Below, in pieces: positions 18,932 to 40,854 of a stretch of DNA of 60,128 nucleotides. This stretch comes from an uncultured Chloroflexia bacterium (GTDB taxonomy: Bacteria; Chloroflexota; Anaerolineae; JAAYZQ01), in NCBI GenBank assembly GCA_963700285.1, contig CAVOXA010000003.1:1-60128 (forward strand). Direction: 5' to 3'. Under the pieces are notes generated by a model. The model was not told the origin of the DNA. It saw only the letters and a list, made by a program, of their open reading frames with translations, and did not search any database. Each line of letters begins with the position of its first letter. Position 1 is the stretch's first letter. Made by a program: the position numbers and the translations under genes.

Positions 18932-19049
18932 TGGGAGCGCTCTCAAAAAGCTTTCTGACCCGCCCTTTGCGGGGCTCATAACGGTCATCTCGGCTCTGTT
19001 GTGGGAGCGCTCTCAAGCAGAGTATATCACAGACATTGCGGTTTGTCAA
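18932..19049 (-). promoter_or_regulatory. Sigma70 promoter plus two LacI-type operators
   Basis: Minus-strand TTGACA(19049-44)-17-TATACT(19026-21); TGGGAGCGCTCTCA at 18932-18945 and 19002-19015. Confidence 0.85.
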
Positions 19050-19077
19050 GAGGTTTATAGTAAAAGTTTGGTCAGCT

Positions 19078-21479
19078 TCATCCCAAAACGACTTCTACCA
19101 TGTTCTGATCGCCAAGCAGGTCCGCCGGGACCAGGTTGCCGGCCAGCGGTTCGCCGTTCAGGGTCAGCGTTTTGACGCCGCTGCAGACACCGCCCGGATT
19201 CCTGACCTCAATCTTGGATCGTCCGCTCCCGGAAGCGGCGCGTGGCCTTGAATCCGCTCCAGGTGCTGGGGATGCAGGGGTCAATGCGCAGGCCATCCAG
19301 CTCGGGCCGCAGTCCCAGGATGTACTGCGTAGCGCTGTAGTAGGCCCAGGCCGCCGCACCGGTCAGCCACGAAGTGCGGGTATTGCCTGGACGGGGTGAA
19401 TAGGTCGAGTAGGTCGTCTGCCCCTGCACATAGGGCTCGATCTGGCGGATCTCGGCGCGGTCATTGTAGGCAGCCGGCATGGAGGCGCGGTAGTACTCGT
19501 AGGCCCGGTCGCCATTGCCCAGCATGCACTCGGCCATCACTCCCCAACCCTGGGTGTGGTTAAAGATGCCGGCATTCTCCTTGACGCCAGGGTTAAAGAC
19601 CACGGCGCGCATGACGTCGATGGGCGTCTTGACAAAGGGCGGAGCGCACAGCATCAGGCCGTACGGGGTAGCCAGGCGCTCCTGGACGGTCTGCCATGCA
19701 GCGGGAGGCCTGTTCAGGCGTGGCTGCGCCGCTGATCACCGCCCAGAGCTGGGTGTTCAGGTAGACCTGCCCCTCCTCATATTCGCGCGTGCCATAGACC
19801 GTGCCATCCTCGCCGATGGCCCAGATGAACCAATCTCCATCCCAGGCGCAGGCCTGGATACTGGCATCCAGGATTTCGCGCTGAGCGAGCGCCCAGGCAG
19901 TCTCCTTCGGTTTGCCCAGCCGTTCGGCGATCTCGGCATAGATCGTCAGGCCCAACCGCACCTGAAAGGCGACAAAGAGGCTTTCTCCGTAGTAGCCGAG
20001 CCGCAGGCAGTCGTTCCAGTCGGCGGACAAGCCACAGGGCAGGCCGATGCTTGCCGGTGCGCTCCAGGTTGAATTCCAGGGCGCGGCGCAGGTGGCCCAG
20101 GACAGTGGCTTCGCCCTGATCGGCGTAGGGCAGTACCTTGTTGTAGAACTCCAGGTCGCCTGTTTCGCCCACATAGACCGGGATCGCGTTAAAGAACCAC
20201 AGGCAGTCATCAGAGCGATACTCTTCGGGATCGAGGCCGCGTTCCGTGTCCAGGACGATGCTCGAACGGCCGGACGACCGGCATTGCTCCACCGTTGGAC
20301 AACTGACCAGTCAGCAGCAATTCCAGGCGTGCCCGGGCCTCATTAGGGATAGCGGCAACCACGCCAAGGATGTCCTGGACCGAGTCGCGGAACCCCAGTC
20401 CATCGCGCTCTCCGTTGTAGACCAGGCTGGCCGCCCGCGACCAGGCGAAGGTGATCAGGCAGTTGTACGAGACCCCAGACGTTGATCGTGTGATTCATCT
20501 CCTCGTCCGGTGTTTCCACCACCAGGCTGCCCAGCCTGGCGTGCCAGTTGTCCTGGAGTTTCTGCAGTTCCGTGCCGGCTCGCTCCAACGATCCGTACTC
20601 GACCACCGCACGTCTGCCCACCGAGCGAGCATCACCGATCCCCAGCATGACGAGCAGTTCGCGGCTCTCGCCCGGCTGGAGAGTCAGGTCGGCCTGTAGG
20701 CTGCCGCAGGCGTTATCGCCGTAGGCATTGCTGTTGGTGCAGTGACCCTTGTTCGACCGCCAGCGGATTGTGATAGCTGCGGTATGGGCCGAGAAAAGTA
20801 TCGCGGCTGGTATCGTACCCAGCCAGCGATTCGCCAACCAACGCCATCCAAGCGTGACAAGCGATATCATGGATAGAGAAGCCCTCGGTGTCCTCCGTCA
20901 GGTTATCCTGAATGGCAATCCGCAACAATCCATCCACTAGCTCACCCCGCACGATAAAGAGCGAGTATTGGAGATTGACCCGGTCCTGGTATGTGTCCCA
21001 CTGGTTGGTGAATTCGCAGAAGGTGAAGGCCGAGATCTCGCGCGCCCGGTCACTCTCGTTCGTCACCTTTAGCCGCCAGTACTCGAAGGTCTGCCCTAGC
21101 GGGACAAAGTAGGTGGCCTCGCTGGCGATCCCCGCGTAGCGCGACTCGAAAACAGAATAGGCCAGTACCGTGACGGCAGATGGACTGATACTGGTCGAGT
21201 GGCTTGCCCACGGGTTGCCAGGAGGCTGACCAGTAATCGCCGCTCGCGACAGTCGCGCAGGTAGAAATAGCGCCCTGGCTGGTCCATCGGGACACTGTTG
21301 AAACACAGACGCAAGAAACGCCCGCGCGCTCCCGACCGGTAGAAGCCATAGCCTCCTGCGTTGTTGGTGATAATGGCCCCATACTCAGTGGAGCCCAGAT
21401 AGTTGCTCCACGATTGCGGGGTATCGGGCCTGGTGATCACATACTCTTTCGCATCGTCGTCAAAGTAGCCGAACTTCAC
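19078..21479 (-). CDS. Second GH94 phosphorylase, cellodextrin/chitobiose phosphorylase-like (many frameshifts)
   Basis: [66 protein letters not shown]. Confidence 0.85.
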
Positions 21480-21592
21480 GGGTAACTCCTGCCAGACCGT
21501 CTGGACCAGGCAGCATCTTGTGGCTTGATCGTCATCAGAGCATCCTCAACCCTTTCAGCAACTCCTTCATTGGAAAGGTTCTCCTGTGTCCC

Positions 21593-21937: not shown

Positions 21938-21966
21938 TTGACGAAAGGCCCCTTCTACATTACAAT
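21938..21966 (+). promoter_or_regulatory. Putative sigma70 promoter of rplY
   Basis: TTGACG-17-TACAAT. Confidence 0.7.
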
Positions 21967-22801: not shown

Positions 22802-23350
22802 GTGGAGATCGTCGTAGCCATGACGGGCGCTTCTGGAGCGGTTATCGGCGTCCGGCTGCTGGAGGCGCTGGACGGGCAGGGTGTCCATACCGTCCACCTG
22901 ATCGTTTCCCACGGGGCATGTGCCGTGCTCGCCCATGAAATCGGGCACGACCCGAGCTTGCCAGCGACCCATCGCTGGAGTGCGGACGATCTCACTGCAC
23001 CCATCGCCAGTTCATCCCGCGGCCCAGAGGCGATGGTCATCGCACCTTGCTCCATGAAGACTCTTTCAGCCATCGCCCACGGATATGCCAGCGATCTGAT
23101 CATCCGTACTGCCGAGATCATGCTGCGCTTAAACCGGCCCCTGGTGCTCATGCCCCGCGAGACACCTCTGTCCTTGCCTGCCATCGAAAATATGCGCCTG
23201 GCCAAGCTGGCTGGGGCCATCATCCTGCCACCCGTAGTAGCCTATTATCCCCAACCGCAAACGGTAGAGCAGATCACCGATTTTTTCGCGGGCAAGGTGC
23301 TTGATGTCTTGGGCCTTCAGCACAGCCTGTATCGACGGTGGAGGGAATAA
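22802..23350 (+). CDS. ubiX: Flavin prenyltransferase UbiX
   Basis: VAMTGASG, APCSMKTLSAIAHG, PRETPL, ENM..L; AGGAG RBS. Confidence 0.95.
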   Translation: MEIVVAMTGASGAVIGVRLLEALDGQGVHTVHLIVSHGACAVLAHEIGHDPSLPATHRWSADDLTAPIASSSRGPEAMVIAPCSMKTLSAIAHGYASDLIIRTAEIMLRLNRPLVLMPRETPLSLPAIENMRLAKLAGAIILPPVVAYYPQPQTVEQITDFFAGKVLDVLGLQHSLYRRWRE

Positions 23351-23352
23351 CC

Positions 23353-24714
23353 ATGAACCTGAGGGAGTTCCTGGCCTGGTCGCGGGACAAGGAGCAATTG
23401 ATGACCATTCCCCAACCAGTCGACCCGCATCTGGAGATGGCCCGCGTCATCCACGCCATGGAGGGCCGGCCGTTGCTGTTCACCAACCCACAGAGGCCTG
23501 GCTGGAAGGTGGCAACGGGAGTCTGTGCCAGACGGGAGCACTTTGCCTGGGCACTGGGCTGCGACGTGGCTGGCATCGTACCCCAATTGGCCGAAGCCCT
23601 GAATCATCCCACCGAGCCCCCCTTGGTAGCCGATGCGCCCTGCCAGGAGGTGGTGGACCGCGAGCCCGACCTGGACGCCCTCCCACTTCTCCGACACCTG
23701 TCTGGCGATGGCGGGCCCTACATCACCGCTGGCATTGCGGTCATCCGCGACCCCGACTATGGCCGCAACGTCAGCTTTCACCGGTTGATGCAGGTTGGCC
23801 CCCGGGCCTTTACTGCCCGCATCGTCGAGGGCCGGGGAACGGATACTGCCTGGCGCAAAGCTTTGGCTGCCGGGCAGGACCTGGAGGTGGCCATTTGCCT
23901 GGGCGTACCCATCCACGTTCTGCTGGCGGCAGCCATGAGCCCGGCCAAAGGGGTGGACGAATTGTGCCTTGCCCATGCCCTGGCCGCGACGCCCCTCGTT
24001 CGCTGTGCGACGGTCGATCTGGAGGTGCCAGCCGAGTGCGAGGTTATTCTGGAGGGAAGGATCACCGGGCGTGAGGCCGACGAGGGACCGTTCATCGACC
24101 TGACCGAGACCTGGGACGTGATCCGCCATCAGCCGATCATCGAGATCGATTGCATGACGCACCGGCAGTCACCCATCTATCACGCCCTGCTGCCTGGTGG
24201 CCTGGAACACAAGCTGCTGATGGGCTTGCCCCGGGAGCCCACCATCTTTCGAGCCGTAGCAGAGGTGGTCGACTGCCTGAATGTGAGCATCACACCCGGC
24301 GGGATGAGTTGGCTCCACGCCGTGGTGCAGATTTCCAAGCGCAACCCCGACGACGGCCGGCAGGCCATGGAGGCCGCCTTCCGGGGACATGGTTCACTGA
24401 AGCACGTGGTCGTCGTAGATGATGACGTCGATCCCTTCGATCCGGCAGCCGTCGAGTGGGCCATCGCTACCCGCTTCCAGGCGGACCAGGACCTGATGGT
24501 CCTTCAGGATCAGCCCAGCAGCAGCCTCGATCCTTCGGCCAGGCAGATACCGGGGCAGAAAGCCCGCACGGCCAAGATGGGATTGGACGCCACAATTCCT
24601 TGGGTTGACAGCGCCGGCTGTCCTCTAAGCCTAGCAAAGCGAGATGGTTTTCGCAAGGTACCCTACGATGGCGTGGATCTCTCCCAATACATTTCAGGCC
24701 CGGAACAGATTTGA
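23353..24714 (+). CDS. UbiD family decarboxylase, likely trans-anhydromevalonate 5-phosphate decarboxylase
   Basis: DGGPYITAG, N.SFHRL, EGPF.D, EH..L, KHVVVVDDDVD, WAIATR, SSLDPS, KMGLDAT; substrate inferred from neighbours. Confidence 0.85.
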   Translation: MNLREFLAWSRDKEQLMTIPQPVDPHLEMARVIHAMEGRPLLFTNPQRPGWKVATGVCARREHFAWALGCDVAGIVPQLAEALNHPTEPPLVADAPCQEVVDREPDLDALPLLRHLSGDGGPYITAGIAVIRDPDYGRNVSFHRLMQVGPRAFTARIVEGRGTDTAWRKALAAGQDLEVAICLGVPIHVLLAAAMSPAKGVDELCLAHALAATPLVRCATVDLEVPAECEVILEGRITGREADEGPFIDLTETWDVIRHQPIIEIDCMTHRQSPIYHALLPGGLEHKLLMGLPREPTIFRAVAEVVDCLNVSITPGGMSWLHAVVQISKRNPDDGRQAMEAAFRGHGSLKHVVVVDDDVDPFDPAAVEWAIATRFQADQDLMVLQDQPSSSLDPSARQIPGQKARTAKMGLDATIPWVDSAGCPLSLAKRDGFRKVPYDGVDLSQYISGPEQI

Positions 24715-24755
24715 CAGGAAGGCGCCCGTTTCAGTCATGATTTCTGCGATGAGAG

Positions 24756-26060
24756 ATGCGCATGAAGACCGATAACCTTCGCAAGCGCAAGGCATCAAGA
24801 TTACTTCTCACTAGCGAAGAACAGGCCATGTGGTCCGGTGAGGCCGGGCCTGGTGTGCGAAAGGCGATGGAGATCGTGGTCGCTCTGGGCCAGATCTATG
24901 GCGCCGCCGATCTGGTACCGGCGGCCAGTGTTCAGGTATCCGGCGTCAGCTATAAGAACCTGGGCGACGCCGGCCTCGAGTTTCTGGAAGAATGGGCATC
25001 CCAAGGCGCCCGAGCTCGGGTGCCCGCTACCCTAAATCCAGCCGGTATGGACATGGTCGAGTGGCGCAAGCTCGGATTCAGCCAGGGATTTGCCCAGCGG
25101 CAGAAGGCCGTCATTGCCGCCTACGCGTCTTTGGGCATCGTGCCAACCTGCACCTGCACGCCTTACCTGGTAGGCTACAAACCACAGTTTGGAGAGCATC
25201 TGGCCTGGGCCGAATCTTCGGCCGTGAGTTACGCCAATTCTGTCCTGGGTGCACGGACAAACCGCGAAGGGGGACCCAGTGCTCTGGCGGCAGCGATCAC
25301 CGGGCGGACGGCACGCTACGGCTTGCACCTGGATGCGAACCGGCGGGCGACAGCCATCATCGACGTTCGCTGTGCTGTGACGTCGGATGCCGATCTGGGC
25401 GCCCTGGGTTACCTGGTGGGCCAACGGGTCAAGAATGGCGTCCCCTACTTTCGGAATCAGGGCGTGGTAGATTGGGAGAATCGCAGGCTGGGGAACTGGG
25501 GGTTAAAGACGCTGGGAGCGGCAATGGCAGCCAGTGGCGCGGTAGCCCTGTATCACGTGGAAGGGATAACGCCGGAGGCAAAGGTTCGGGGCGTGCTCGC
25601 ACCCGGCGCCCAAACCCTGATCGTAGACAGCCTGGCGCCCGCCTACGACCAACTTGATGGTCCCTCCGAGGCTGTGGATCTCGTGAGCCTAGGCTGCCCG
25701 CACGCCTCCCTGGGCGAAATTGAGGCCATTGCCGATTACCTGGAGGGGCGGCAGGTCAAGGCTACCCTTTGGATAACCACGGCGCGAGCCACACGGGATG
25801 CAGCCAGCGAGGCTGGGTTGGTGAGTCGTATCGAAGCCTCGGGCGGCTGGGTGGTGCCCGACACGTGCATGGTAGTTGCTCCCGTAGCCGATCTCGGGTA
25901 CCGCACACTGGCCACCAATTCGGCCAAAATGGCCTTCTACACGCCCTCCCACAGCGGGCTCTCGGTACGCTTTGGCCCCATTGAGCAGTGTCTTGAAGCC
26001 GCCAGGACAGGCAAGTGGCCCAACCCGCGCGTTACACATCACGAATCACGGATCACGTAG
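24756..26060 (+). CDS. Aconitase X catalytic (DUF521) subunit, likely phosphomevalonate dehydratase large subunit
   Basis: VSGVSY..LGDAG, TLNPAG, CTCTPY, WAESSA, GARTNREG, GCPH, DTCMVV, TNSAK; candidate Fe-S Cys ligands present; exact start uncertain. Confidence 0.88.
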   Translation: MRMKTDNLRKRKASRLLLTSEEQAMWSGEAGPGVRKAMEIVVALGQIYGAADLVPAASVQVSGVSYKNLGDAGLEFLEEWASQGARARVPATLNPAGMDMVEWRKLGFSQGFAQRQKAVIAAYASLGIVPTCTCTPYLVGYKPQFGEHLAWAESSAVSYANSVLGARTNREGGPSALAAAITGRTARYGLHLDANRRATAIIDVRCAVTSDADLGALGYLVGQRVKNGVPYFRNQGVVDWENRRLGNWGLKTLGAAMAASGAVALYHVEGITPEAKVRGVLAPGAQTLIVDSLAPAYDQLDGPSEAVDLVSLGCPHASLGEIEAIADYLEGRQVKATLWITTARATRDAASEAGLVSRIEASGGWVVPDTCMVVAPVADLGYRTLATNSAKMAFYTPSHSGLSVRFGPIEQCLEAARTGKWPNPRVTHHESRIT

Positions 26061-26061
26061 C

Positions 26062-26448
26062 ATGGAACTCATAGGACGAACCATCAAGAGCGGAACCGCC
26101 AAAGGCGTCGCCCTCGTGACATCCGAACCCATCGGATTCCTCGGTGGGGTAGACCCGGAGACGGGTCTCGTCATTGAACCTGGGCATCCCCTGGAGCGGC
26201 AGTGTGTTACCGGCAGGGTGCTGGTCTTTCCCACAGGCAAGGGCAGCACGGTAGGCTCTTACACCCTTTATCGCATGGCCAAGGCTGGCACGGCACCGGC
26301 CGCCATTATCAATGCCGAAAGCGAAGCAATTGTGGCTGTGGGAGCGATCATCAGCGACATTCCCATGGTAGACCAGGTGGACATCGCCCAGATCCGGACC
26401 GGCGACCAGGTGTCCATCGATGGAGATCGCGTGGAGATTAGCCGATGA
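26062..26448 (+). CDS. Aconitase X swivel (DUF126) subunit, likely phosphomevalonate dehydratase small subunit
   Basis: FLGGVDPETG, GKGSTVGSY (catalytic Ser motif), APAAII. Confidence 0.9.
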   Translation: MELIGRTIKSGTAKGVALVTSEPIGFLGGVDPETGLVIEPGHPLERQCVTGRVLVFPTGKGSTVGSYTLYRMAKAGTAPAAIINAESEAIVAVGAIISDIPMVDQVDIAQIRTGDQVSIDGDRVEISR

Positions 26449-27299
26449 CGCCAAGCAGTACAGGCCGGCTGGTTTTCGTAAAGCTAGGCGGTTCGGTGAT
26501 CACCGACAAGACCCAGCCCGAGATGGATCGACCGGAAGTAATCAGCCGTCTCGCAAACGAGGTCGCGCGTGCGCTGGCTAACCGGCCTGACCTGCGGTTG
26601 GTGCTGGGACACGGCAGCGGATCGTTTGGGCACGTTGTCGCCCAGCACTACGGAACACGCCAGGGGGTACGCGGAGCAGCCCAATGGCAGGGCTTTGCCG
26701 AGGTAGCTTTGGTCGCATCGCTGCTGAATCGCATTGTGACCGAGGAATTCCTGGAAGCTGGCGTTCCAGTTTGGTCGCTCCAGCCGTCTGCTATGGCCTG
26801 GTGCCGCGCCGGCGAACTGATATCGTTACCTACCAGGCCTGTGGAACACGCGCTGTCCGCTGGGTTGGTCCCCCTTTTGTATGGCGACGTGGCCCTTGAC
26901 GAGGTACAAGGAGGTACAATCATCTCCACTGAGCAGATCTTTGCCTACCTGGCTCGCCAACTCCGCCCGGCCCAGATCGTGCTGGTGGGGGCGGTGGATG
27001 GAGTGTATGACCGGGATCCATTGCGCGACCCATCAGCCAGCCCCATAGCAGAGATCTCGGCCGCGAACTGGGAAACGATACGCGGCTCCCTGGGCGGCTC
27101 TCATGCCACCGACGTGACCGGTGGGATGCATTCCAAGGTTGCAGAGATGATGAGCTTGGTCCAAGAAGTACCAGGGCTCACGGTACACCTGGTCTCAGGC
27201 GAGCGGCGCAGTGCCCTGGAGACGGCCCTGCTCGAACCTGCCAGAGCTGCGGGAGGGACCATGATCCGCTGGAATGACCAGGTGGGCATCGGAAGGTAA
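26445..27299 (+). CDS. ipk: Isopentenyl phosphate kinase
   Basis: KLGGSVITDK, HGSGSFGH with the IPK-specific His, YGDV, DVTGGM..K; ATGA overlap with upstream gene. Confidence 0.92.
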   Translation: MTPSSTGRLVFVKLGGSVITDKTQPEMDRPEVISRLANEVARALANRPDLRLVLGHGSGSFGHVVAQHYGTRQGVRGAAQWQGFAEVALVASLLNRIVTEEFLEAGVPVWSLQPSAMAWCRAGELISLPTRPVEHALSAGLVPLLYGDVALDEVQGGTIISTEQIFAYLARQLRPAQIVLVGAVDGVYDRDPLRDPSASPIAEISAANWETIRGSLGGSHATDVTGGMHSKVAEMMSLVQEVPGLTVHLVSGERRSALETALLEPARAAGGTMIRWNDQVGIGR

Positions 27300-27309
27300 T
27301 CCAGCTAAC

Positions 27310-27338
27310 TTGCCCGGACACCCAAAAGGTGCTATGAT
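27310..27338 (+). promoter_or_regulatory. Putative internal promoter upstream of mvaD
   Basis: TTGCCC-17-TATGAT with extended TGn. Confidence 0.55.
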
Positions 27339-27362
27339 ACCGGCAAAGGCTGGAATACAAGT

Positions 27363-28349
27363 ATGTCGAAAGGCAAGGCGACCGCGGTCGCAAACCCGAA
27401 TATCGCTTTCATCAAATACTGGGGCAAGGCCAACGATGCCCTGAACCTGCCTGCCAATCCATCACTTTCGATGAACCTGGCAGCACTGACGACCGTGACG
27501 ACTGTCGAGTTTCGGCCAAGATTGCCCAGCGACATGGTGACCATCGACGGTCAGCCGGCAACGGGCCATGCTCTGGAGCGGGTAGTTCAGCACCTTGATC
27601 GAGTCCGGGCACTGGCCGGACTCGATGAAAAAGCCCAGGTCGTCAGTCAGAATGACTTTCCGGCTGGGACGGGGTTGGCCTCATCAGCATCCGCCTTTGC
27701 GGCCCTGTCACTGGCAGCGACGCGGGCAGCAGGGATTCAGTTGTCGGAAGAAGAATTATCGCGCCTGGCGCGATTGGGATCTGGGTCGGCCTGCCGGTCG
27801 GTGCCTGCTGGCTTTGTCCTATGGGACGGGGATCGCGATGCTACATCGTTTGCCCGTCAGGTAGCGCCCCCAGATCACTGGGATTTGTGCGATCTGGTTG
27901 CCATCGTCAGCCACCAGCACAAACAGGTGGGCTCGCACCACGGACACGAGCTCGCATCGACCAGTCCATTCTACCCAGCCCGGTTGGATGCCGTGCCAGA
28001 ACTGCTGGCAACGGTCATGTCGGGCATTCAGCAGCGTGATCTGGCGACCGTGGGATCCGCCATTGAGGCCGATACCCTGGCTATGCACGGGGTGATGATG
28101 ACCTCAGATCCTTCGCTCTTGTACTGGGAAGACGCGACTGTGGCCGTGCTGCAAGGGGTGCGAGCTTGGCGCCAATCGGGTCTGGACGTCTTTTTTACGC
28201 TGGATGCTGGCCCCAATGTCCACTGCTTCTGTGAAGGACGCGACGTCGCTGAGGTTGAGGCACGATTGCGCGACCTGCCAGGCGTCCGAGATGTACTGCT
28301 TAGCGGTCCGGGTGGTGGTGTGCGGCTTGTGGAATACTATTTGTTCTAG
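27363..28349 (+). CDS. mvaD: GHMP-family (di)phosphomevalonate decarboxylase
   Basis: NIAFIKYWGK, GLASSASAFAAL, RLGSGSACRS, FTLDAGPNVH. Confidence 0.93.
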   Translation: MSKGKATAVANPNIAFIKYWGKANDALNLPANPSLSMNLAALTTVTTVEFRPRLPSDMVTIDGQPATGHALERVVQHLDRVRALAGLDEKAQVVSQNDFPAGTGLASSASAFAALSLAATRAAGIQLSEEELSRLARLGSGSACRSVPAGFVLWDGDRDATSFARQVAPPDHWDLCDLVAIVSHQHKQVGSHHGHELASTSPFYPARLDAVPELLATVMSGIQQRDLATVGSAIEADTLAMHGVMMTSDPSLLYWEDATVAVLQGVRAWRQSGLDVFFTLDAGPNVHCFCEGRDVAEVEARLRDLPGVRDVLLSGPGGGVRLVEYYLF

Positions 28350-28366: not shown

Positions 28367-29023
28367 TTGGAGGCTCTTGAGTTGGAGTATAGCGAAAAGG
28401 TCATGGACCACTTTATGAATCCCCGCAACGTGGGGGTTATCGAGGATGCTGACGGCGTCGGCCGGACGGGCAACCCGACCTGCGGCGATCTTATGGAGAT
28501 GTCGATCAAGATCCATGAGGGCGTGATCACGGACATCAAGTTTCGGACCTTTGGCTGCGGGGCAGCCATCGCTACGAGTTCGATGGCCACTGAGTTGATC
28601 CTGGGCAAGACAATTGACGAAGCGTTAGAGATCTCAAATCGGGCCATCGCCGAGGCACTGGACGGACTACCACCGATCAAGATGCATTGTTCAGTTCTGG
28701 CTGCTGATGCCCTGCGGGCCACGCTGGCCGATTATTACACCCGCCAGGGCCAACTGGAAAAAGCCGCTGCACTCACCGACGATAGAGTGGCCGAGCCCGT
28801 GGACGCGGAGGAGGCGCGCGAGCCACTGCATTGGGACGACTTTTCCAGAATGGTACGGGCTCTGAATTCCGCCTATCCAGATACGGATCCCCTGGACCTG
28901 AGCACAACCAAGCTGTTCAAAATGGTCCTGAAACTGCCTGGCTTTGATGACAACCCGGGGGTGGCCAACGAGGAGCACTTGGAAAAGCTGCAGATGGCCT
29001 GGCACGATGTTCAGGCTGGCTAG
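28367..29023 (+). CDS. iscU: Fe-S scaffold IscU/NifU-N fused to a C-terminal IscX-like domain
   Basis: YSEKVMDHF.NPRN.G, CGD, FGC..AIA.SS, LPPIKMHCS; tail LHWDD...YPDTDP...FDDNP...NEEHLEKLQMAW. Confidence 0.88.
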   Translation: MEALELEYSEKVMDHFMNPRNVGVIEDADGVGRTGNPTCGDLMEMSIKIHEGVITDIKFRTFGCGAAIATSSMATELILGKTIDEALEISNRAIAEALDGLPPIKMHCSVLAADALRATLADYYTRQGQLEKAAALTDDRVAEPVDAEEAREPLHWDDFSRMVRALNSAYPDTDPLDLSTTKLFKMVLKLPGFDDNPGVANEEHLEKLQMAWHDVQAG

Positions 29024-29047: not shown

Positions 29048-30325
29048 GTGGTAACGGTTCTGTCACTGGTAATCGCACTGAGTGTCGTCGTATTTGTGCA
29101 TGAATTGGGGCACCTGCTCGCCGCCAAGCGCGCAAAGGTGGTCGTCGAGGAGTTTGGCTTCGGCTATCCGCCCCGCGTGTTCACCTTTTGGCATAGCGAA
29201 GGTGACATTGTCATCGGCGGGAGAAAAATCGTGATCCCCCGTGACTTTCAGTTGCCAAAAGGCCTGCAAGCTCGATCTCTCGTGGTCTACCAGACTGGTA
29301 CCGACAAGAAGGGCCGCGAGGTATTGACCCACGTTGAGGAGGTCGAACCCGAGGATGCAGCCATCGAATCAGCCAGTTATGTAGAGCGGCTAGATCCAGG
29401 TACACTCTTCTCTGTCAATGCGATCCCCTTTGGGGGCTTTGCCCGCATGCTGGGCGAAGAAGATCCGACCTTCCCTGGCAGCCTGGCCAGCAAGAGCAAG
29501 ATCACGCGAATCGTGGTGCTGGCCGCCGGAGCAGGCATGAATCTGTTGATGGCGGTAGTCTTTTTTTCCCTGGCACTTCGTTTGGGAGCACCGGCTGTCG
29601 CGCAGCCGGAGAATGCGGTGGTTAACGCAGTAACCCCAGGTTCGCCTGCTGAGACTTCGGGCCTGTTGCCCAGGGACGTGATCTTGCGCGCCGATGACCG
29701 GGAAATTGAGACAATCGCCGACCTGCAGGAACATACTCAGGCCCACCTTGGAGCCCCTGTGGCGCTGACTGTACTGCGCGACGACGGTACACAGCAGATC
29801 ACGGTCGTACCTCGCATCTCTCCGCCAGAGGGTGAGGGACCGATGGGTATCAGTCTGACTCCACGCATGGCCGTCAAGCAGTATCCATGGCCTGAAGCCA
29901 TCTGGCTGGGGATAAAACAAACAGCAGGCTATATCAGCCTCATCATCACCCTGCCCGTCCAGATCATCAGAGGTCTGATCCCAGCCGACCTTGCCCGGCC
30001 CGTGGGCCCAGTGGGAGTAGGGCGGTTGGTGGGCGATGCAGTACAGTACTCGCTGGACAGCGGATGGTGGTTTCCAGTGATGCAGATGATGGGTACCTTG
30101 AGCGTGGCCCTGGCTGTTACCAACCTACTGCCACTGCCTGCGCTGGATGGCGGACGTATTCTCTTTGTCATTGTAGAAGGCATTCGAGGTCGCCGCATAG
30201 ATCCGGCCAAAGAGGGCCTGGTACACCTCATTGGTATGTTGTTGCTGGTAGGCCTGATGCTATTCATTACCTGGCAGGATTTGATCAACCCAGTGCCCTC
30301 TTTGGACTGGGGCAGTTTCTTCTAA
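29048..30325 (+). CDS. rseP: M50 intramembrane zinc protease with PDZ domain
   Basis: HELGH, FGFGYPP, IPFGGF, AG..MN, GPVG, NLLPLPALDGG. Confidence 0.93.
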   Translation: MVTVLSLVIALSVVVFVHELGHLLAAKRAKVVVEEFGFGYPPRVFTFWHSEGDIVIGGRKIVIPRDFQLPKGLQARSLVVYQTGTDKKGREVLTHVEEVEPEDAAIESASYVERLDPGTLFSVNAIPFGGFARMLGEEDPTFPGSLASKSKITRIVVLAAGAGMNLLMAVVFFSLALRLGAPAVAQPENAVVNAVTPGSPAETSGLLPRDVILRADDREIETIADLQEHTQAHLGAPVALTVLRDDGTQQITVVPRISPPEGEGPMGISLTPRMAVKQYPWPEAIWLGIKQTAGYISLIITLPVQIIRGLIPADLARPVGPVGVGRLVGDAVQYSLDSGWWFPVMQMMGTLSVALAVTNLLPLPALDGGRILFVIVEGIRGRRIDPAKEGLVHLIGMLLLVGLMLFITWQDLINPVPSLDWGSFF

Positions 30326-30414: not shown

Positions 30415-31311
30415 GTGAAAAAGTGTAGCCGTTGTCGCACCGAGGTCCAGACCGGACAACTCGTCTGTCCCCATTGTGGCAAGCCCCAGCGACACCCCCG
30501 GAGCATTCGCTGCCGGCACTGTGGCACGGTCAGTAGCCGGGCCTTTGAGGTATGTCCCAGTTGCGGCGAACCCCTGCGGCATGACTGGCTCCGGCCGCTG
30601 CTAATCGGAGCCGGCTTTGTGGTCGCGATCGCGTTCTTGTTCCTGGTGATTCCCTGGCTGCAACAGCGTCTGGAAGGCTTCCGGCCTCCATTGGCAATGG
30701 GCACAGTCCAAGCTGTCGCTAGCGAAGTTCCGATCCTCGTCCTTGTCGAGGTACCCACTTTGACGTCCACCCCGACTGCAACAAATACCCCCATACCCAC
30801 CAGCACCCCTACCACTACACCGACACCCAGCCTGACACCTACCTTGACGCCGACAGTCACGCCAACTGAGACGCCCACGCCTGCGCCAACCTGGACACCC
30901 ACGCCTACGGTAACCCGTGTGCAGCCATCGCCGACGCCGACAGAAACCCCGACGTCTGCGCCAACCGTCGCCCCGCCAACACCGTTCAGACCTGAAGACG
31001 GCGCCTTGTTCAGCGGGGAAAATGCCAAGATCGAGTTGGCATGGACCAGTGGACACACGCTGAAGCCTGATGAATGTTTTCTGGTGACGGTACGCTGGAC
31101 CGAACGAGGAGTTCGGACAAGTACGCAGGTATGCATACAGGCAACATCCTGGTTCGCGGATGGGTCGCTCCATCTTCGGGCAGACCAGGAGACCGATCGA
31201 GTATACGATTGGAGCGTACAGCTTGCTCGGGAGGAAACCGACGAGAACGGCCAGGAGACTTTTGCCTCTTTTAGCCCTTCAAGCGACGAACGTTCCTTTC
31301 ACTGGCGGTAG
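30415..31311 (+). CDS. Double zinc-ribbon, single-TM protein with Pro/Thr linker and beta-rich C-terminal domain
   Basis: Four CxxC, a hydrophobic segment, a TPTxT stretch and a Trp-rich tail. Confidence 0.75.
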   Translation: MKKCSRCRTEVQTGQLVCPHCGKPQRHPRSIRCRHCGTVSSRAFEVCPSCGEPLRHDWLRPLLIGAGFVVAIAFLFLVIPWLQQRLEGFRPPLAMGTVQAVASEVPILVLVEVPTLTSTPTATNTPIPTSTPTTTPTPSLTPTLTPTVTPTETPTPAPTWTPTPTVTRVQPSPTPTETPTSAPTVAPPTPFRPEDGALFSGENAKIELAWTSGHTLKPDECFLVTVRWTERGVRTSTQVCIQATSWFADGSLHLRADQETDRVYDWSVQLAREETDENGQETFASFSPSSDERSFHWR

Positions 31312-36397: not shown

Positions 36398-36560
36398 CCA
36401 ACCAGGTTACTCTTTGGCTCCCCCAACGTCAGCGCTAGCGGAACACCGACCACCCAGGCGAGCCCCCTCCAGCCAAGCGTGTGATCAGCATAACTCTAAA
36501 GGTTTGTTGTCGTGCCCTTCTTACGCTATAATGCGGACTACCTCACACAAGGGGGAAACC

Positions 36561-38603
36561 ATGAAGGACCTTCGACATATCTGCGAATTGATCTGGCAGA
36601 CACTATCCGGTGATGCGGCCTGGCAGTCCGTCTCCGATCTGAGCCGCTTCCACCGCATCCAGGCCAGCCCCGGCTACCGCCAGGCGGCCCAGTGGGTCCA
36701 CCAGCGCCTGCTCGAGGCGGGATTGGACTCGGAAATCCTCTCCTATGCTGCCGACGAAGAGACACAGCTTCTGGAGCTGGACCAGCTTCCAGGAGTGGGA
36801 CTGCATCAACGCCACGCTGCACCTGATCGCCCCCGAGGAGCAGGCTGGCGAACTGGCCAACTTCCGGGCCAATCCCATCTCTGTTATCCAGCGCAGCGCG
36901 CCCTTTGAGGGCGAGGCTGAGGTCGTGCTGCTGAAAGACGGCAGGACGAGAGCGACTACGACGGCCTCGACGTGGCAGGCAAGGTTGTGCTCACCTGTGG
37001 GGACCTGCGCCGCGTCTGGGAACTGGCCGTCGTACAGCGGGGCGCCATCGGCCTGCTCTTTGACGGCATGCGGCCCGTGCCGCCGGTGCGACCCGAGGGC
37101 GATCTGGCCGACATCCGCCAGTACACCTCTTTCTGGTGGCTGCCGGGCGACGCGCATTGCTTTGGCTTTGTCCTGACTCCCCGCCAGGGCCAGGCGCTAC
37201 GCCGCCTGCTGGCGGGAGCACGAAGAACCAGTGCATGCCCGGGTCAAAGTCGATAGCCGCCTTTACGATGGCACCATGGAGGTCGTCTCAGGCGACCATC
37301 CCCGGCAAGCACAGACGAGCGAGATCGTCGTCGTGGCCCATCTCTGCCACCCCATACCCTCGGCCAACGACAATGCTTCGGGGGCGGCCGCAGCCTTGGA
37401 GGCGGCCCGGGCGCTGCAGTCGCTGGTATCCAGCGGCCAGTTGCCGGCCCCCAAGCGTACCATCCGCTTCCTGTGGCTGCCAGAGATGACCGGCTCCTGT
37501 GCCTACCTGGCCGGGCGCGAGGACGACCTGGACCAGATGGTGGCTGGCATCAACCTGGACATGGTGGGCGAGGACCAGAACCAGACGGGCAGCTCCTGGC
37601 TCATCGAGCGCCCGCCCGAGGCTGCCGCCTCCTTTGCGCCCGACCTGCTGGCCCGCTTGCGCGACGAATTCCCCAAGATGAAGGGCATGACCGGCGTCTC
37701 GCCCAGCCACACCGGCATGGGCGCCTATCCCCTCTACCGCCAGGCCGAGGTCCCCTTTTCCGGCGGCAGCGACCACTTTATCCTCTCCGATCCCGCTGTC
37801 GGCGTGCCCACGCCCGATGCTCATCCAGTGGCCCGACCGCTTCTACCACACCTCGGCCGATACGCCCGACCGCACCGATCCCCACAGCCTGGCCCGCTCC
37901 GGGACCCTGGCGGCGGCCTACGCCTACTGGCTGGCCAGCGGCCGGCACTGAGGAGGCGACCTGGCTGGGCTACGAGATGGCTGGCCCGCTTCAAGGCCAG
38001 AGTGGTCGAAACCGCCCAGACAGCCGTGACAGAAGCTCAGGATCGAGCAGATGGCGAATCTCTGGCCCGGATCATCCTCGACCTCGATCGCCGCCTGGCC
38101 TACCTGCTGGACCGACAGAAGGCAGCCCTGGCCACGCTGGAACGGTTGGCACCCGTCCGATTGCCTGGTAGAAGAGCTCCAGGCCGAAGCCGAACAGGCT
38201 GTACGGCGCGAACTGGCCTGGGCCAGGGGCGGCGTGGACCTACACGCGGCCACTCTGGGCCTCGACCGCCTGCCCATCATCCCGCCCCGCGTGATTCCTG
38301 AAGAGGAGCAGCAAGCAGCGGGGCTGATACCGATGCGCCAGGTCCGAGGACCCATTCCGCTGCAGCAGTACTTGCACCGCCTGGACGATGAGGACCGCCA
38401 GGCTTGGCGCCAACTGCTCAAGGAGCGCAAGGGCTGGGGCGCATCACACATTGACAGCTCTGGCCCTCTACTGGGCCGATGGCGCCCGATCCCTACTCGG
38501 ACATCGCCGACCTGGTGGAGTTGGAGACCGGGAGCCGGGATGTGAGTACTGCTTGCTCGCCTACTTTCGCCTTCTGGAGAAACTGGATTTCGTCAGATTA
38601 TGA
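36561..38603 (+). CDS. M28 peptidase-like/DUF4910-like protein (many frameshifts)
   Basis: FHRIQASPG, AHLCHP..ANDNASG, LPEM.G, INLDMVG, GGSDH across frames. Confidence 0.75.
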
Positions 38604-38692
38604 GTTCGCTGTATCGAGTTCGATGTTCGAAGTGCGATGTTCGTAGGCAGGCATCGTGAAAACGATCGAGCTATGCAGTTGAAGGAGAACCT

Positions 38693-39691
38693 ATGCAGAT
38701 TCTTGTGACCGGCGGCGCGGGCTATATCGGCAGCGTCGTCGTGGAGGAGCTGATCCGCCAGGGCGACGAGGTCACCGTGCTGGACAATCTGATCCAGGGA
38801 CACCGGGCGGCCGTACATCCCCAGGCCGAGTTCGTCCTGGGGGACCTGGCCGACCGGCAGGCTCTGCAGATCTCTTTGCCAGCCACAGCTTTGAGGCGGT
38901 CATGCACTTTGCCTCGCACACTGCTGGTCGGCGAATCGATGCGAAAAGCCCTTCATGTACCTGGGCGACAACGTGATCAATGGACTCAACCTGCTGGAGA
39001 CCATGGTCGACCACGGCGTCCGCCGTTTCATCCTGTCATCCACGGCCGACTCTGTTTGACCAGCCCGAGCGGATCCCCATCGATGAAGGGGAGCAGATCG
39101 TTCCCGGCAGCCCCTACGGCGAGTCCAAGTTCATCCTGGAGCGGGTACTGCACTGGCTGGACCAGCATCCACGGCCTGCGCTACGCGGCTCTGCGCTACT
39201 TTAATGCCGCCGGCGCCACTTCTGAACGGGGCGAGGACCATAGGCCCGAAACCCACCTCATCCCCCTGGTGCTCCAGGTGGCCCTGGGCCAGCGGAAACA
39301 GATCCAGATCTATGGCAACCGACTATCCCACCCGCGACGGGACCTGCGTGCGCGACTATATCCACGTGCTCGACCTGGCCCAGGCCCACATCCTGGCCCT
39401 GCGCGCCCTGGACGACGGCAGCCGGACCTACAACCTGGGCAACGGCCAGGGCTATACCGTCCGCGAGGTCATCGAGATGGCCCGCGAGGTGACCGGCCAC
39501 CCCATCCCGGCCGTGGCAGGTCCCCGGCGACCCGGCGATCTGCCAGCGCTCGTCGCCAGCTCGGACAGGATCCGGAGAGAGCTGGGCTGGCAGCCCCGCT
39601 ACCCCGATCTGCGCGACATCGTCCAGAGCGCCTGGGACTGGCACCGGGTGCATCCCAAGGGCTACGAGCCAAGCCTTCCACCCAGGGGTAG
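38693..39691 (+). CDS. galE: UDP-glucose 4-epimerase (frameshifted)
   Basis: [49 protein letters not shown]. Confidence 0.92.
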
Positions 39692-39696
39692 CCTGC

Positions 39697-40854
39697 ATGC
39701 GCATTGCCATCAACGCCTGGTTCTCTGGATCAGCCTGGCACCGGCAGCGGCCAATACCTGCAACGGCCTGCTGCCGGGCCATGCCACCGGCGGTGGGACC
39801 TGAGCACCAGTTCCTCCTCGTCAGCCCCACCAGGCGTACCTGAGCGCCAGATCCCGGGGCTCCAACTCGAGTGTCTGGCCCATTCGAGGCAGCAGCGGTG
39901 GCGCAGCAGGCTGGGCAAGGTGCTATTCGAGCAGTTCTCCTTTCCCCGTGCCTGCCGCCAGTGGGGAGCGGACGTGGCCCACGTCCCCTACTGGGGCTCA
40001 CCCTTGCGGCCAGCGGTTCCCACGGTGGTCACCATCCACGACCTGATCCCACTGCTGCTGCCCGCCTACCGGGGCGGGCCGCTGGTACGACTCTACACCC
40101 GCCTGGTGGCAGCCGCCGCCCGGCAGGCCGCCCTTGTTCTCACCGACTCTCTGGCCTCCAAGCGTGACATCGAGCAGCACCTGGGCCTACCGCCCGAACC
40201 GGTGCGCTGCATCTATCTGGCCGCCGGCGAGCAGTTCAGCCCGGAGCCGGAACCCGACGACGAACCCATCCGCGCAGATCTATGAGCTTCCCCGAGCGTT
40301 ACGTGCTCTACCTGGCCGGCCACGACGAACGCAAGAACGTGGAGGGCGCTGGTCGAGGCCTTTGCCACCGTGGCCCAGGCGGACGACGACGTGACCCTGG
40401 TCATCGGCGGGCAAGCTGCCCGATCGGGACAAGCCACCCTTTTACGATCCCCGGCCCCTGGTGGAGGCGCTGGGCATCGGCGACGACGTGCTCTTTGCCG
40501 GCTGGGTGGACGAAGCCCACAAACCTGCCCTTTACCGCGGCGCGGCCTGCGCCGTCTTTCCCTCGCGCTACGAGGGCTTTGGGCTGCCAGTACTGGAAGC
40601 GCTGGCCTGCGGCACGCCTCTGATGACGTCAAATACCAGCTCGCTGCCGGAACTGGTCGGCGATGCCGGCTTCGCCCTCGACCCCGACGACACAGATGGC
40701 CTGGCCGGCGCCATGCTCGCCTGCCTGGTGGACGAGCCGCTGGCCGCCGAGCTCCGCGTCGCGGGCCGAAGCAGGCCGCCCGTTCAGCTGGGCGCAAACG
40801 GCCCACGAGACGCTGGCTGCCTACGAGCAGGCCAGCAGCTCAGGAGAGCGCTAG
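39697..40854 (+). CDS. GT4 glycosyltransferase (frameshifted)
   Basis: [38 protein letters not shown]. Confidence 0.88.

Follow-up and report, generated by a model that had tools for sequence, protein, structure and literature searches.

E. coli IscX is a weakly binding, dispensable protein that has mainly been interpreted as a CyaY antagonist, and three-domain NifU consists of a U domain, a ferredoxin-like domain and an Nfu domain. In E. coli, IscS, IscU and IscX form a ternary complex, and the basic surface of IscS used by IscX also serves CyaY and ThiI (PMC2854127). The E. coli IscX-IscS Kd is ~14 uM, and IscX rescues from CyaY inhibition (PMC5801593). Fe2+ raises the affinity of IscX for IscU (PMC8593673, citing Kim 2014). 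The MIS system was described as MisS and the IscU-like MisU without additional components (PMC13066941, describing Garcia et al. 2022), and both the function of IscX and the origin of the iron used in Fe-S assembly are regarded as open questions (PMC8593673; PMC13066941).

We analyzed a 60,128-nucleotide stretch of DNA (the window) from an uncultured Anaerolineae genome (GTDB lineage JAAYZQ01; its family is here called f1; 89% complete), in which an IscX domain follows a U-type scaffold in one protein. The fused domain passes the IscX family cut-offs, is 38% identical over 61 residues to E. coli IscX (YfhJ; PDB 2BZT and 1UJ8), has three predicted helices and keeps the E. coli W5, D7, F42, D44, E51, E55, W61 and D63 positions. 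Unlike E. coli IscX, it is fused behind a scaffold outside an isc operon, has no CyaY found for it to oppose and carries half the net negative charge (-5 in the window protein, with a mean of -5.8 in 120 homologues, compared to -11 in E. coli IscX and values from -8 to -14 for the free IscX proteins of Anaerolineae). The C-terminal acids of its surface are retained and the helix-1 acids are gone, with Arg at the E. coli E10 and E13 positions in 120/120 and 118/120 fused homologues, respectively. Helix-1 acids are kept more often in a second Anaerolineae family with the fusion (f3) than in f1, where they are replaced by Arg.

The system resembles MIS in its TIGR03419-type IscU-like scaffold, its group I desulfurase and the lack of any dedicated chaperones found, and differs from MIS as described in that its MisU incorporates an accessory factor of ISC and the misU gene lies apart from misS. 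Because IscX is fused to the scaffold, we consider this system a variant of MIS rather than a plain member. It also recalls three-domain NifU in having a U-type N-domain with an extra C-terminal helper in one chain, but the appended domain here is IscX, which has no Cys and no cluster. Our preferred reading, to which we assign a probability of about 50%, is that the fusion is a housekeeping MIS-type scaffold whose tethered IscX domain would aid assembly, probably by holding Fe2+, independently of CyaY.

The misU-iscX fusion gene and its distribution

Positions 28367 to 29023 (+) of the window form a single stop-free ORF, which the first-pass annotation had interpreted as a natural scaffold-IscX fusion within an intact region. 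Our analysis confirmed this interpretation, as both domains lie in this one ORF and each of the 120 best homologues, which are 79-93% identical and come from many independent assemblies, has the two Pfam domains as well. The mevalonate-fusion-rseP block is intact. The gene has the following parts, with residues numbered by the 213-aa protein.

28382 to 29023 (+): misU-iscX fusion gene, 213 aa, TTG start
28369 to 28373 (+): GGAGG, ribosome-binding site 8 nt ahead of the TTG; relatives have comparable motifs in front of this start
28385 to 28750 (+): U-type scaffold domain, residues 2-123, PF01592 and TIGR03419 above cut-off
28751 to 28825 (+): acidic linker of 25 residues, fixed in length, with invariant Ala128 and Pro139
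28826 to 29008 (+): IscX domain, residues 149-209, matching PF04384, TIGR03412 and PDB 2bzt/1uj8, pN/pS 0.21

In the 218-aa reading from 28367, to which Pfam match coordinates refer, NifU_N scored 165.3 bits (cut-off of 22; residues 7-128) and Fe-S_assembly (IscX, PF04384) scored 61.2 bits (cut-off of 25; residues 154-214). The tail also exceeded the curated cut-off of TIGR03412 for IscX (58.8 versus 40.4 bits), and a PDB sequence search with the tail returned only the E. coli IscX chains 2bzt_A and 1uj8_A (E ~8e-9). The by-eye match of the tail to IscX/YfhJ is therefore upheld by these profile matches.

Judged from the sequence, TTG 28382 is more likely the start than 28367, which we rejected because the GGAGG spacing and the 213-aa length of the homologues (93 of 120) favor the TTG. 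The same start position is used in all 16 related loci inspected, as TTG or GTG in 11/11 f1 loci and as ATG in 5/5 f3 loci. TTG is the start codon in the window and in 10 of the 11 f1 loci (GTG in one), which suggests that low translation has been kept in f1.

The linker, previously estimated at ~30 residues, is 25 residues long in 120/120 homologues and has a mean net charge of -6.7. We rejected an assembly artifact or a read-through of two genes, since 120/120 homologues share the architecture with fixed spacing, and the presence of the same fusion in many independent assemblies served as a test for linker read-through in any one assembly. Four public sequencing runs contributed short pieces from other strains only, without cover across the linker. 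Elsewhere in the window, at 19000-21500 and 36400-39800, several genes appear frameshifted, probably due to assembly errors.

Four full-length genome matches of the fusion are all labeled Anaerolineae. A full-length, stop-free fusion was detected in 21 of 23 f1 genomes, with the other two being 75% and 81% complete. The fusion is also present in 5 of 5 f3 genomes. In a class sample of 301 genomes, with a threshold of E <= 1e-35 for MisU-type U domains, IscX was found in 69 genomes and U in 114; 53 contained IscX only, 98 contained U only and 16 contained both, which were fused in 14 (9 f1 and 5 f3). IscX, which had been described as mostly proteobacterial, is thus not rare in Anaerolineae, and all 20 IscX matches in a 301-genome sample of the phylum belong to this class. 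Two of the best 150 of 12,132 matches in a 50%-identity library extend over both domains, and these are a full member and a fragment belonging to this family, and the best 120 of 220 longer IscX-matching proteins belong to the same fusion family, 118 with NifU_N on record. We found no fusion outside this family among these best 150 and best 120 matches, and others may exist in distant taxa.

In an IscX tree of 40 domains and 64 columns (two duplicate rows dropped), the fused domains from both f1 and f3 group on a single branch with a support of 99/100, indicating one fusion event, and this clade is on a long branch of 0.8 changes per site. The U-domain tree is largely unresolved and by itself is no proof of a single origin or of placement among MisU. 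Over 12 f1 genes (66 pairs), uncorrected pN/pS values, with pS near saturation, were 0.105 (U), 0.21 (IscX) and 0.42 (linker); by this comparison, the fused IscX domains are under purifying selection.

Public annotation already records both Pfam domains, and most entries are named 'NifU-like'. Each of the two domains belongs to a known family, whereas their combination in one protein and the placement of IscX within a MIS-type system are apparently new. No description of a scaffold-IscX fusion or of IscX in a MIS-type system was found in the literature searched, and the fusion is without mention in the available portions of PMC2854127, PMC8918507, PMC12353581, PMC10631705, PMC13066941, PMC6205161 and PMC11559095; the texts and supplements of Garcia 2022 and Kim 2014 may bear on priority.

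Scaffold type and predicted desulfurase partner

The intact scaffold noted in the first-pass annotation from three Cys and LPPIK is present, and it includes Asp and His ligands as well: Cys34, Asp36, Cys59, His102 and Cys103, along with Tyr3 and LPPIK at 96-100. C34, D36, C59, K100, H102 and C103 are invariant in 120/120 close homologues and in 5/5 f3 proteins. In an alignment with E. coli IscU, the U part has no long insertion, and the best Foldseek matches of the AF2 model were IscU of IscS-IscU complexes, with all of the matches listed falling on the U domain. The U domain is predicted to assemble Fe-S clusters with a desulfurase. Position 105 of the U domain, which aligns to prokaryotic IscU position 108, is Val, described as the frataxin-independent type (PMC4440780).

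The U part passes TIGR03419 for clostridial NifU/MisU (200.5 versus a cut-off of 187.9) and fails TIGR01999 for proteobacterial IscU (150.8 versus 192.4), TIGR01994 for SufU (77.9 versus 92.5) and TIGR02000 for three-domain NifU (152.5 versus 273.3). The earlier label "IscU" therefore holds for a U-type scaffold but not for the ISC type, as TIGR03419 places the domain in the MIS type. SufU was rejected as an identity because TIGR01994 is below and TIGR03419 above cut-off. Three-domain NifU was likewise rejected, with TIGR02000 below cut-off and neither a central [2Fe-2S] domain nor a C-terminal Nfu domain in the protein.

CyaY was not found in the window's genome (0/1) or in 22 relatives (0/22), and E. 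coli HscB and the ISC ferredoxin Fdx had no tblastn match in the window's genome at E 1e-3. Matches to HscA in this genome reached 39-41% only and were taken as DnaK-like. An ISC operon with HscA/HscB, ferredoxin and iscS-iscU together was not found in this 89%-complete genome. On these sequence criteria, the scaffold is MIS-type and not ISC.

Consistent with the earlier remark that no iscS is adjacent, no desulfurase match was detected on the window's contig. The genome encodes two group I desulfurases, of which MisS (G000:C1:1628298-1629458) scores 531.5 against the TIGR03402 cut-off of 530.75. MisS sits in an Rrf2-cysE-cysK-misS...mnmA cluster that includes misU in other Anaerolineae, and it is 66-78% identical to desulfurases near misU in relatives. 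A desulfurase is nearby at 0/27 fusion loci versus 76/88 stand-alone U loci. The best group I desulfurase keeps a C-terminal SPL tail and ExAH in 14/14 fusion genomes and 10/10 U-only genomes and in 0/15 IscX-only genomes, and the SPL tail is kept in one of two genomes with separate U and IscX. In E. coli, IscU contacts the desulfurase at this C-terminal region (PMC2854127), and retention of the tail and ExAH in fusion genomes indicates that the MisS-scaffold partnership persists.

SufB was detected, in pieces, in the genome of the window, as well as in 12/17 other f1 genomes and in 8/8 IscX-only genomes, and was not found in the draft genomes of 5/5 f3 and 5/17 other f1 members. The fusion is the only scaffold detected where SufB was not found, which points to a housekeeping job. 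The suf operon of the window's genome (G000:C1:1258000-1267500, with sufB and sufS in pieces) appears frameshifted, probably due to assembly errors.

R223/R225, R340 and R112 of E. coli IscS are important for its binding of IscX (PMC2854127, PMC5801593). None of the 41 aligned Anaerolineae desulfurases has the R223/R225 stretch, and the MisS of this genome does not keep R340 and R112 and has Arg at the M239 position. The loss of these residues counts against our preferred reading, as do the lower acidity of the fused IscX and its Arg at the E10 and E13 positions. The E. coli R220 position is Arg or Lys in 14/14 fusion-genome desulfurases, 6/10 from U-only genomes and 4/15 from IscX-only genomes, a comparison that is weak because it represents two clades. 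The basic R220 position and the clustering of MisS with mnmA would also suit a tethered IscX that covers the basic pocket of MisS upon docking and excludes tRNA-thiolation acceptors or damps MisS, without handling iron. Such a role has precedent in E. coli, where the IscX footprint overlaps that of ThiI and excludes TusA (PMC2854127) and a second IscX site on IscS is inhibitory (PMC5801593). Considering that the R223/R225 stretch is missing from the desulfurases and that the fused IscX has reduced acidity, we regard this role as unlikely.

The mevalonate neighborhood and free IscX

The fusion gene lies between an archaeal-type mevalonate block and rseP:

22802 to 24714 (+): homologues of ubiX and ubiD, part of an archaeal-type mevalonate block, from profile matches
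24756 to 26448 (+): aconitase X, large (24756-26060) and small (~26062-26448), PF04412 and PF01989
26445 to 27299 (+): isopentenyl phosphate kinase (IPK), NF040647 above cut-off
27363 to 28349 (+): MVD-like (diphospho/phosphomevalonate) decarboxylase, upstream neighbor, a non-Fe-S enzyme
29048 to 30325 (+): rseP, M50 protease, downstream neighbor, constant in 22/22 f1 loci

The fusion had been placed directly downstream of Fe-S-dependent mevalonate genes. A mevalonate gene does directly precede it, but this gene encodes the MVD-like decarboxylase, and AcnX-large, the large subunit of aconitase X (AcnX), ends 2.3 kb upstream. Intergenic gaps are 32 nt upstream and ~24 nt downstream of the fusion gene. 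A promoter scan gave one 10/12 promoter-like site at 21938-21966 (6 sites versus 2.7 expected) and a terminator scan was at chance level; only the short gaps suggest co-transcription.

Other features of the block were also observed. The AcnX/UbiD/UbiX route and the MVD-like gene plus IPK, all within 22802-28349, represent two possible routes from phosphomevalonate to isopentenyl phosphate, and MVD is missing from the block in six loci where IPK abuts the fusion. A double zinc-ribbon membrane protein with a Thr-Pro-rich stalk (30415-31311, +) follows rseP in most f1 loci. In four of five f3 loci, a conserved protein of ~100 aa without a Pfam or NCBIfam match follows the fusion (L140:9690-9995 (+), L139, L142 and L143).

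The large and small AcnX subunits likely form phosphomevalonate dehydratase. The archaeal-type dehydratase of A. pernix requires a [4Fe-4S] cluster (PMC10040528), and an archaeal-type mevalonate pathway has been reported for a Chloroflexota bacterium (title cited in PMC12547664), making AcnX a plausible client of the fusion scaffold. A stronger version of this idea, raised in the first-pass annotation, is that the fusion is a dedicated scaffold for the [4Fe-4S] cluster of AcnX. In f1, the fusion lies between IPK or MVD and rseP in 22/22 loci, AcnX-large is in the block in 13 and AcnX-large was found in 13/14 fusion genomes of the class sample. However, kin share gene order, so that the 22 f1 loci are not 22 independent events, and rseP is an equally constant neighbor. 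Of the 19 informative f1 loci, 6 (each with at least 3.9 kb of upstream DNA; 3 further loci were too short) have no AcnX-large in the block, where IPK/MVD and rseP remain, and mevalonate genes are near 0/5 f3 fusion loci, 4 of which have at least 7.7 kb upstream. Furthermore, AcnX-large occurs in 169/301 class genomes and the fusion in 14, with 156 of the 169 AcnX genomes lacking the fusion, and in several genomes no scaffold other than the fusion was found. A special AcnX-maturation role thus has little support in these distributions, and we consider it very improbable. The mevalonate-fusion linkage looks like the inherited gene order of one family, and AcnX may well be one ordinary client.

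The genomic context of free IscX in Anaerolineae raises a different possibility. Free iscX immediately precedes nuoB-nuoCD-nuoI in 34 of 36 loci examined (36 of 55 such genomes; L144, L145, L150-L169 and L023-L047), and mrp and SufR-like or ErpA-like genes are often close by. These 34 loci are in genomes without a MisU match, and the two exceptions are the two genomes with separate misU, whose IscX proteins are the class members nearest the fused clade in the IscX tree (unstarred). The iscX-nuoB-nuoCD-nuoI(-mrp) operon thus shares the class and the IscX family with the fusion, but its IscX is free and MisU was not found; in the fusion genome, IscX has left nuoB, leaving nuoB-CD-I without iscX in front, and joined MisU. 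Where MisU was not found and the U-binding tail of the desulfurase is lost, free IscX may have a scaffold-independent, complex-I-related job, judging from gene content. An ancestral local job of IscX may therefore face clients rather than the scaffold, which counts against our preferred reading.

By extension, the fused IscX could address the loaded scaffold to acceptors such as the NuoB/NuoI core of complex I, replacing the missing HscA/HscB release step. In addition to the gene order, the desulfurases of IscX-only genomes lack the U-binding tail (0/15) and are non-basic at the R220 position in 11/15, HscB had no match in the window's genome and the charge on helix 1 of the fused IscX is reversed. 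The long branch of the fused domain counts against this proposal, as its partner may have changed. Since this proposal rests on gene order and E. coli data put IscX on IscS and IscU, we find it rather unlikely.

Three further arrangements were observed in Anaerolineae. One genome (G006, L146:53-4023) has a desulfurase, an MVD-like gene, a SufR-like regulator, free iscX and nuoI together, a single case that is possibly a trace of iscX nearing mevalonate genes. A second U fusion of ~209 aa joins NifU_N to PF01883 (FeS_assembly_P / DUF59-like; L181:6312-6938 (-) and L182-L188) and usually adjoins a group I desulfurase. A MisU at L193:6111-6647 (+) has a C-terminal double zinc-ribbon-like, Cys-rich tail, with PF12773 just below cut-off.

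The tethered IscX domain and its proposed role

Structure prediction of the fusion protein alone, suggested as a check in the first pass, gave helices at 154-164, 175-184 and 197-212 in the IscX part at pLDDT 84-94, and these helices along with the sequence matches would be consistent with a three-helix IscX fold for the fused domain. The AF2 model of the window protein (pLDDT 88.6, pTM 0.77) has an ordered linker, and the linker of the f3 model (pLDDT 83.0, pTM 0.69) is looser (pLDDT 63-64). Position 41 of the U domain is Ser in 118/120 fused proteins, position 108 is Ala in 120/120 and position 116 is Ala in 109/120, with small residues at all three positions in 5/5 f3 proteins as well, in contrast to 88 stand-alone U proteins with mostly Tyr/Phe at 41, Glu at 108 and charged residues at 116. 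These substitutions hint at a face buried by the linker or IscX.

A buried face and an ordered linker are what would be expected if the IscX domain and linker mainly packed on and stabilized the scaffold, with IscX-type activity lost. However, the surface acids at the D44, E51 and E55 positions are near-invariant in fused homologues (120, 119 and 120 of 120), the f3 linker is poorly ordered and packing is compatible with function. We therefore consider a purely structural appendage improbable. In our preferred reading, the fused IscX domain would bind Fe2+ and possibly the desulfurase. A complex prediction with two MisS chains and the IscX domain alone scored 0.00, which counts neither way on binding.

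We return to our preferred reading of a housekeeping scaffold aided by its tethered IscX. MisS, encoded on contig C1, would pass sulfur to the U domain, and the tether would turn the weak interactions of IscX into a fixed 1:1 arrangement. The acidic core of IscX (E. coli D7, D43/D44, E51, E55 and D63 positions) would bind Fe2+ weakly and hand it to the U ligands, possibly while IscX rests in the basic pocket of MisS, and finished clusters would go to many clients, AcnX among them. A Rosetta-stone interpretation of the fusion, as first proposed, fits both the E. coli ternary complex (PMC2854127) and the Fe2+-enhanced IscX-IscU affinity (PMC8593673). We rejected a CyaY-opposing role of the fused IscX because no CyaY was found in the genome or in 22 relatives, so that the role known from E. 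coli cannot be its job here. The lack of a detected CyaY together with a tether under selection most simply suggests that a weak, direct, positive action on the scaffold has become fixed.

Some E. coli data count against this reading. IscX at a low ratio does not affect the formation of clusters, and its action on IscS does not depend on iron (PMC5801593); according to a review, in vivo work did not support IscX as an iron donor (PMC8593673). In addition, MisU without IscX in 98/301 class genomes implies that the IscX domain is not generally required.

The fusion blurs the picture of MIS as a system without accessory parts. A lineage without detected CyaY or ISC chaperones has kept IscX welded to the scaffold, providing a natural test case for the role of a protein whose function is disputed elsewhere. 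In a two-protein system of MisS and the fusion, deletion of a single domain of 65 residues is a direct test of IscX function, and the tethered construct is suited for solving a desulfurase-scaffold-IscX structure. More tentatively, the fusion could represent the one-chain scaffold and IscX of a minimal MIS-type machine, the sole scaffold found in some lineages, with IscX as a CyaY-free iron-feeding module recruited in Anaerolineae from the complex I operon. If this is true, IscX would have a direct, positive role in cluster assembly.
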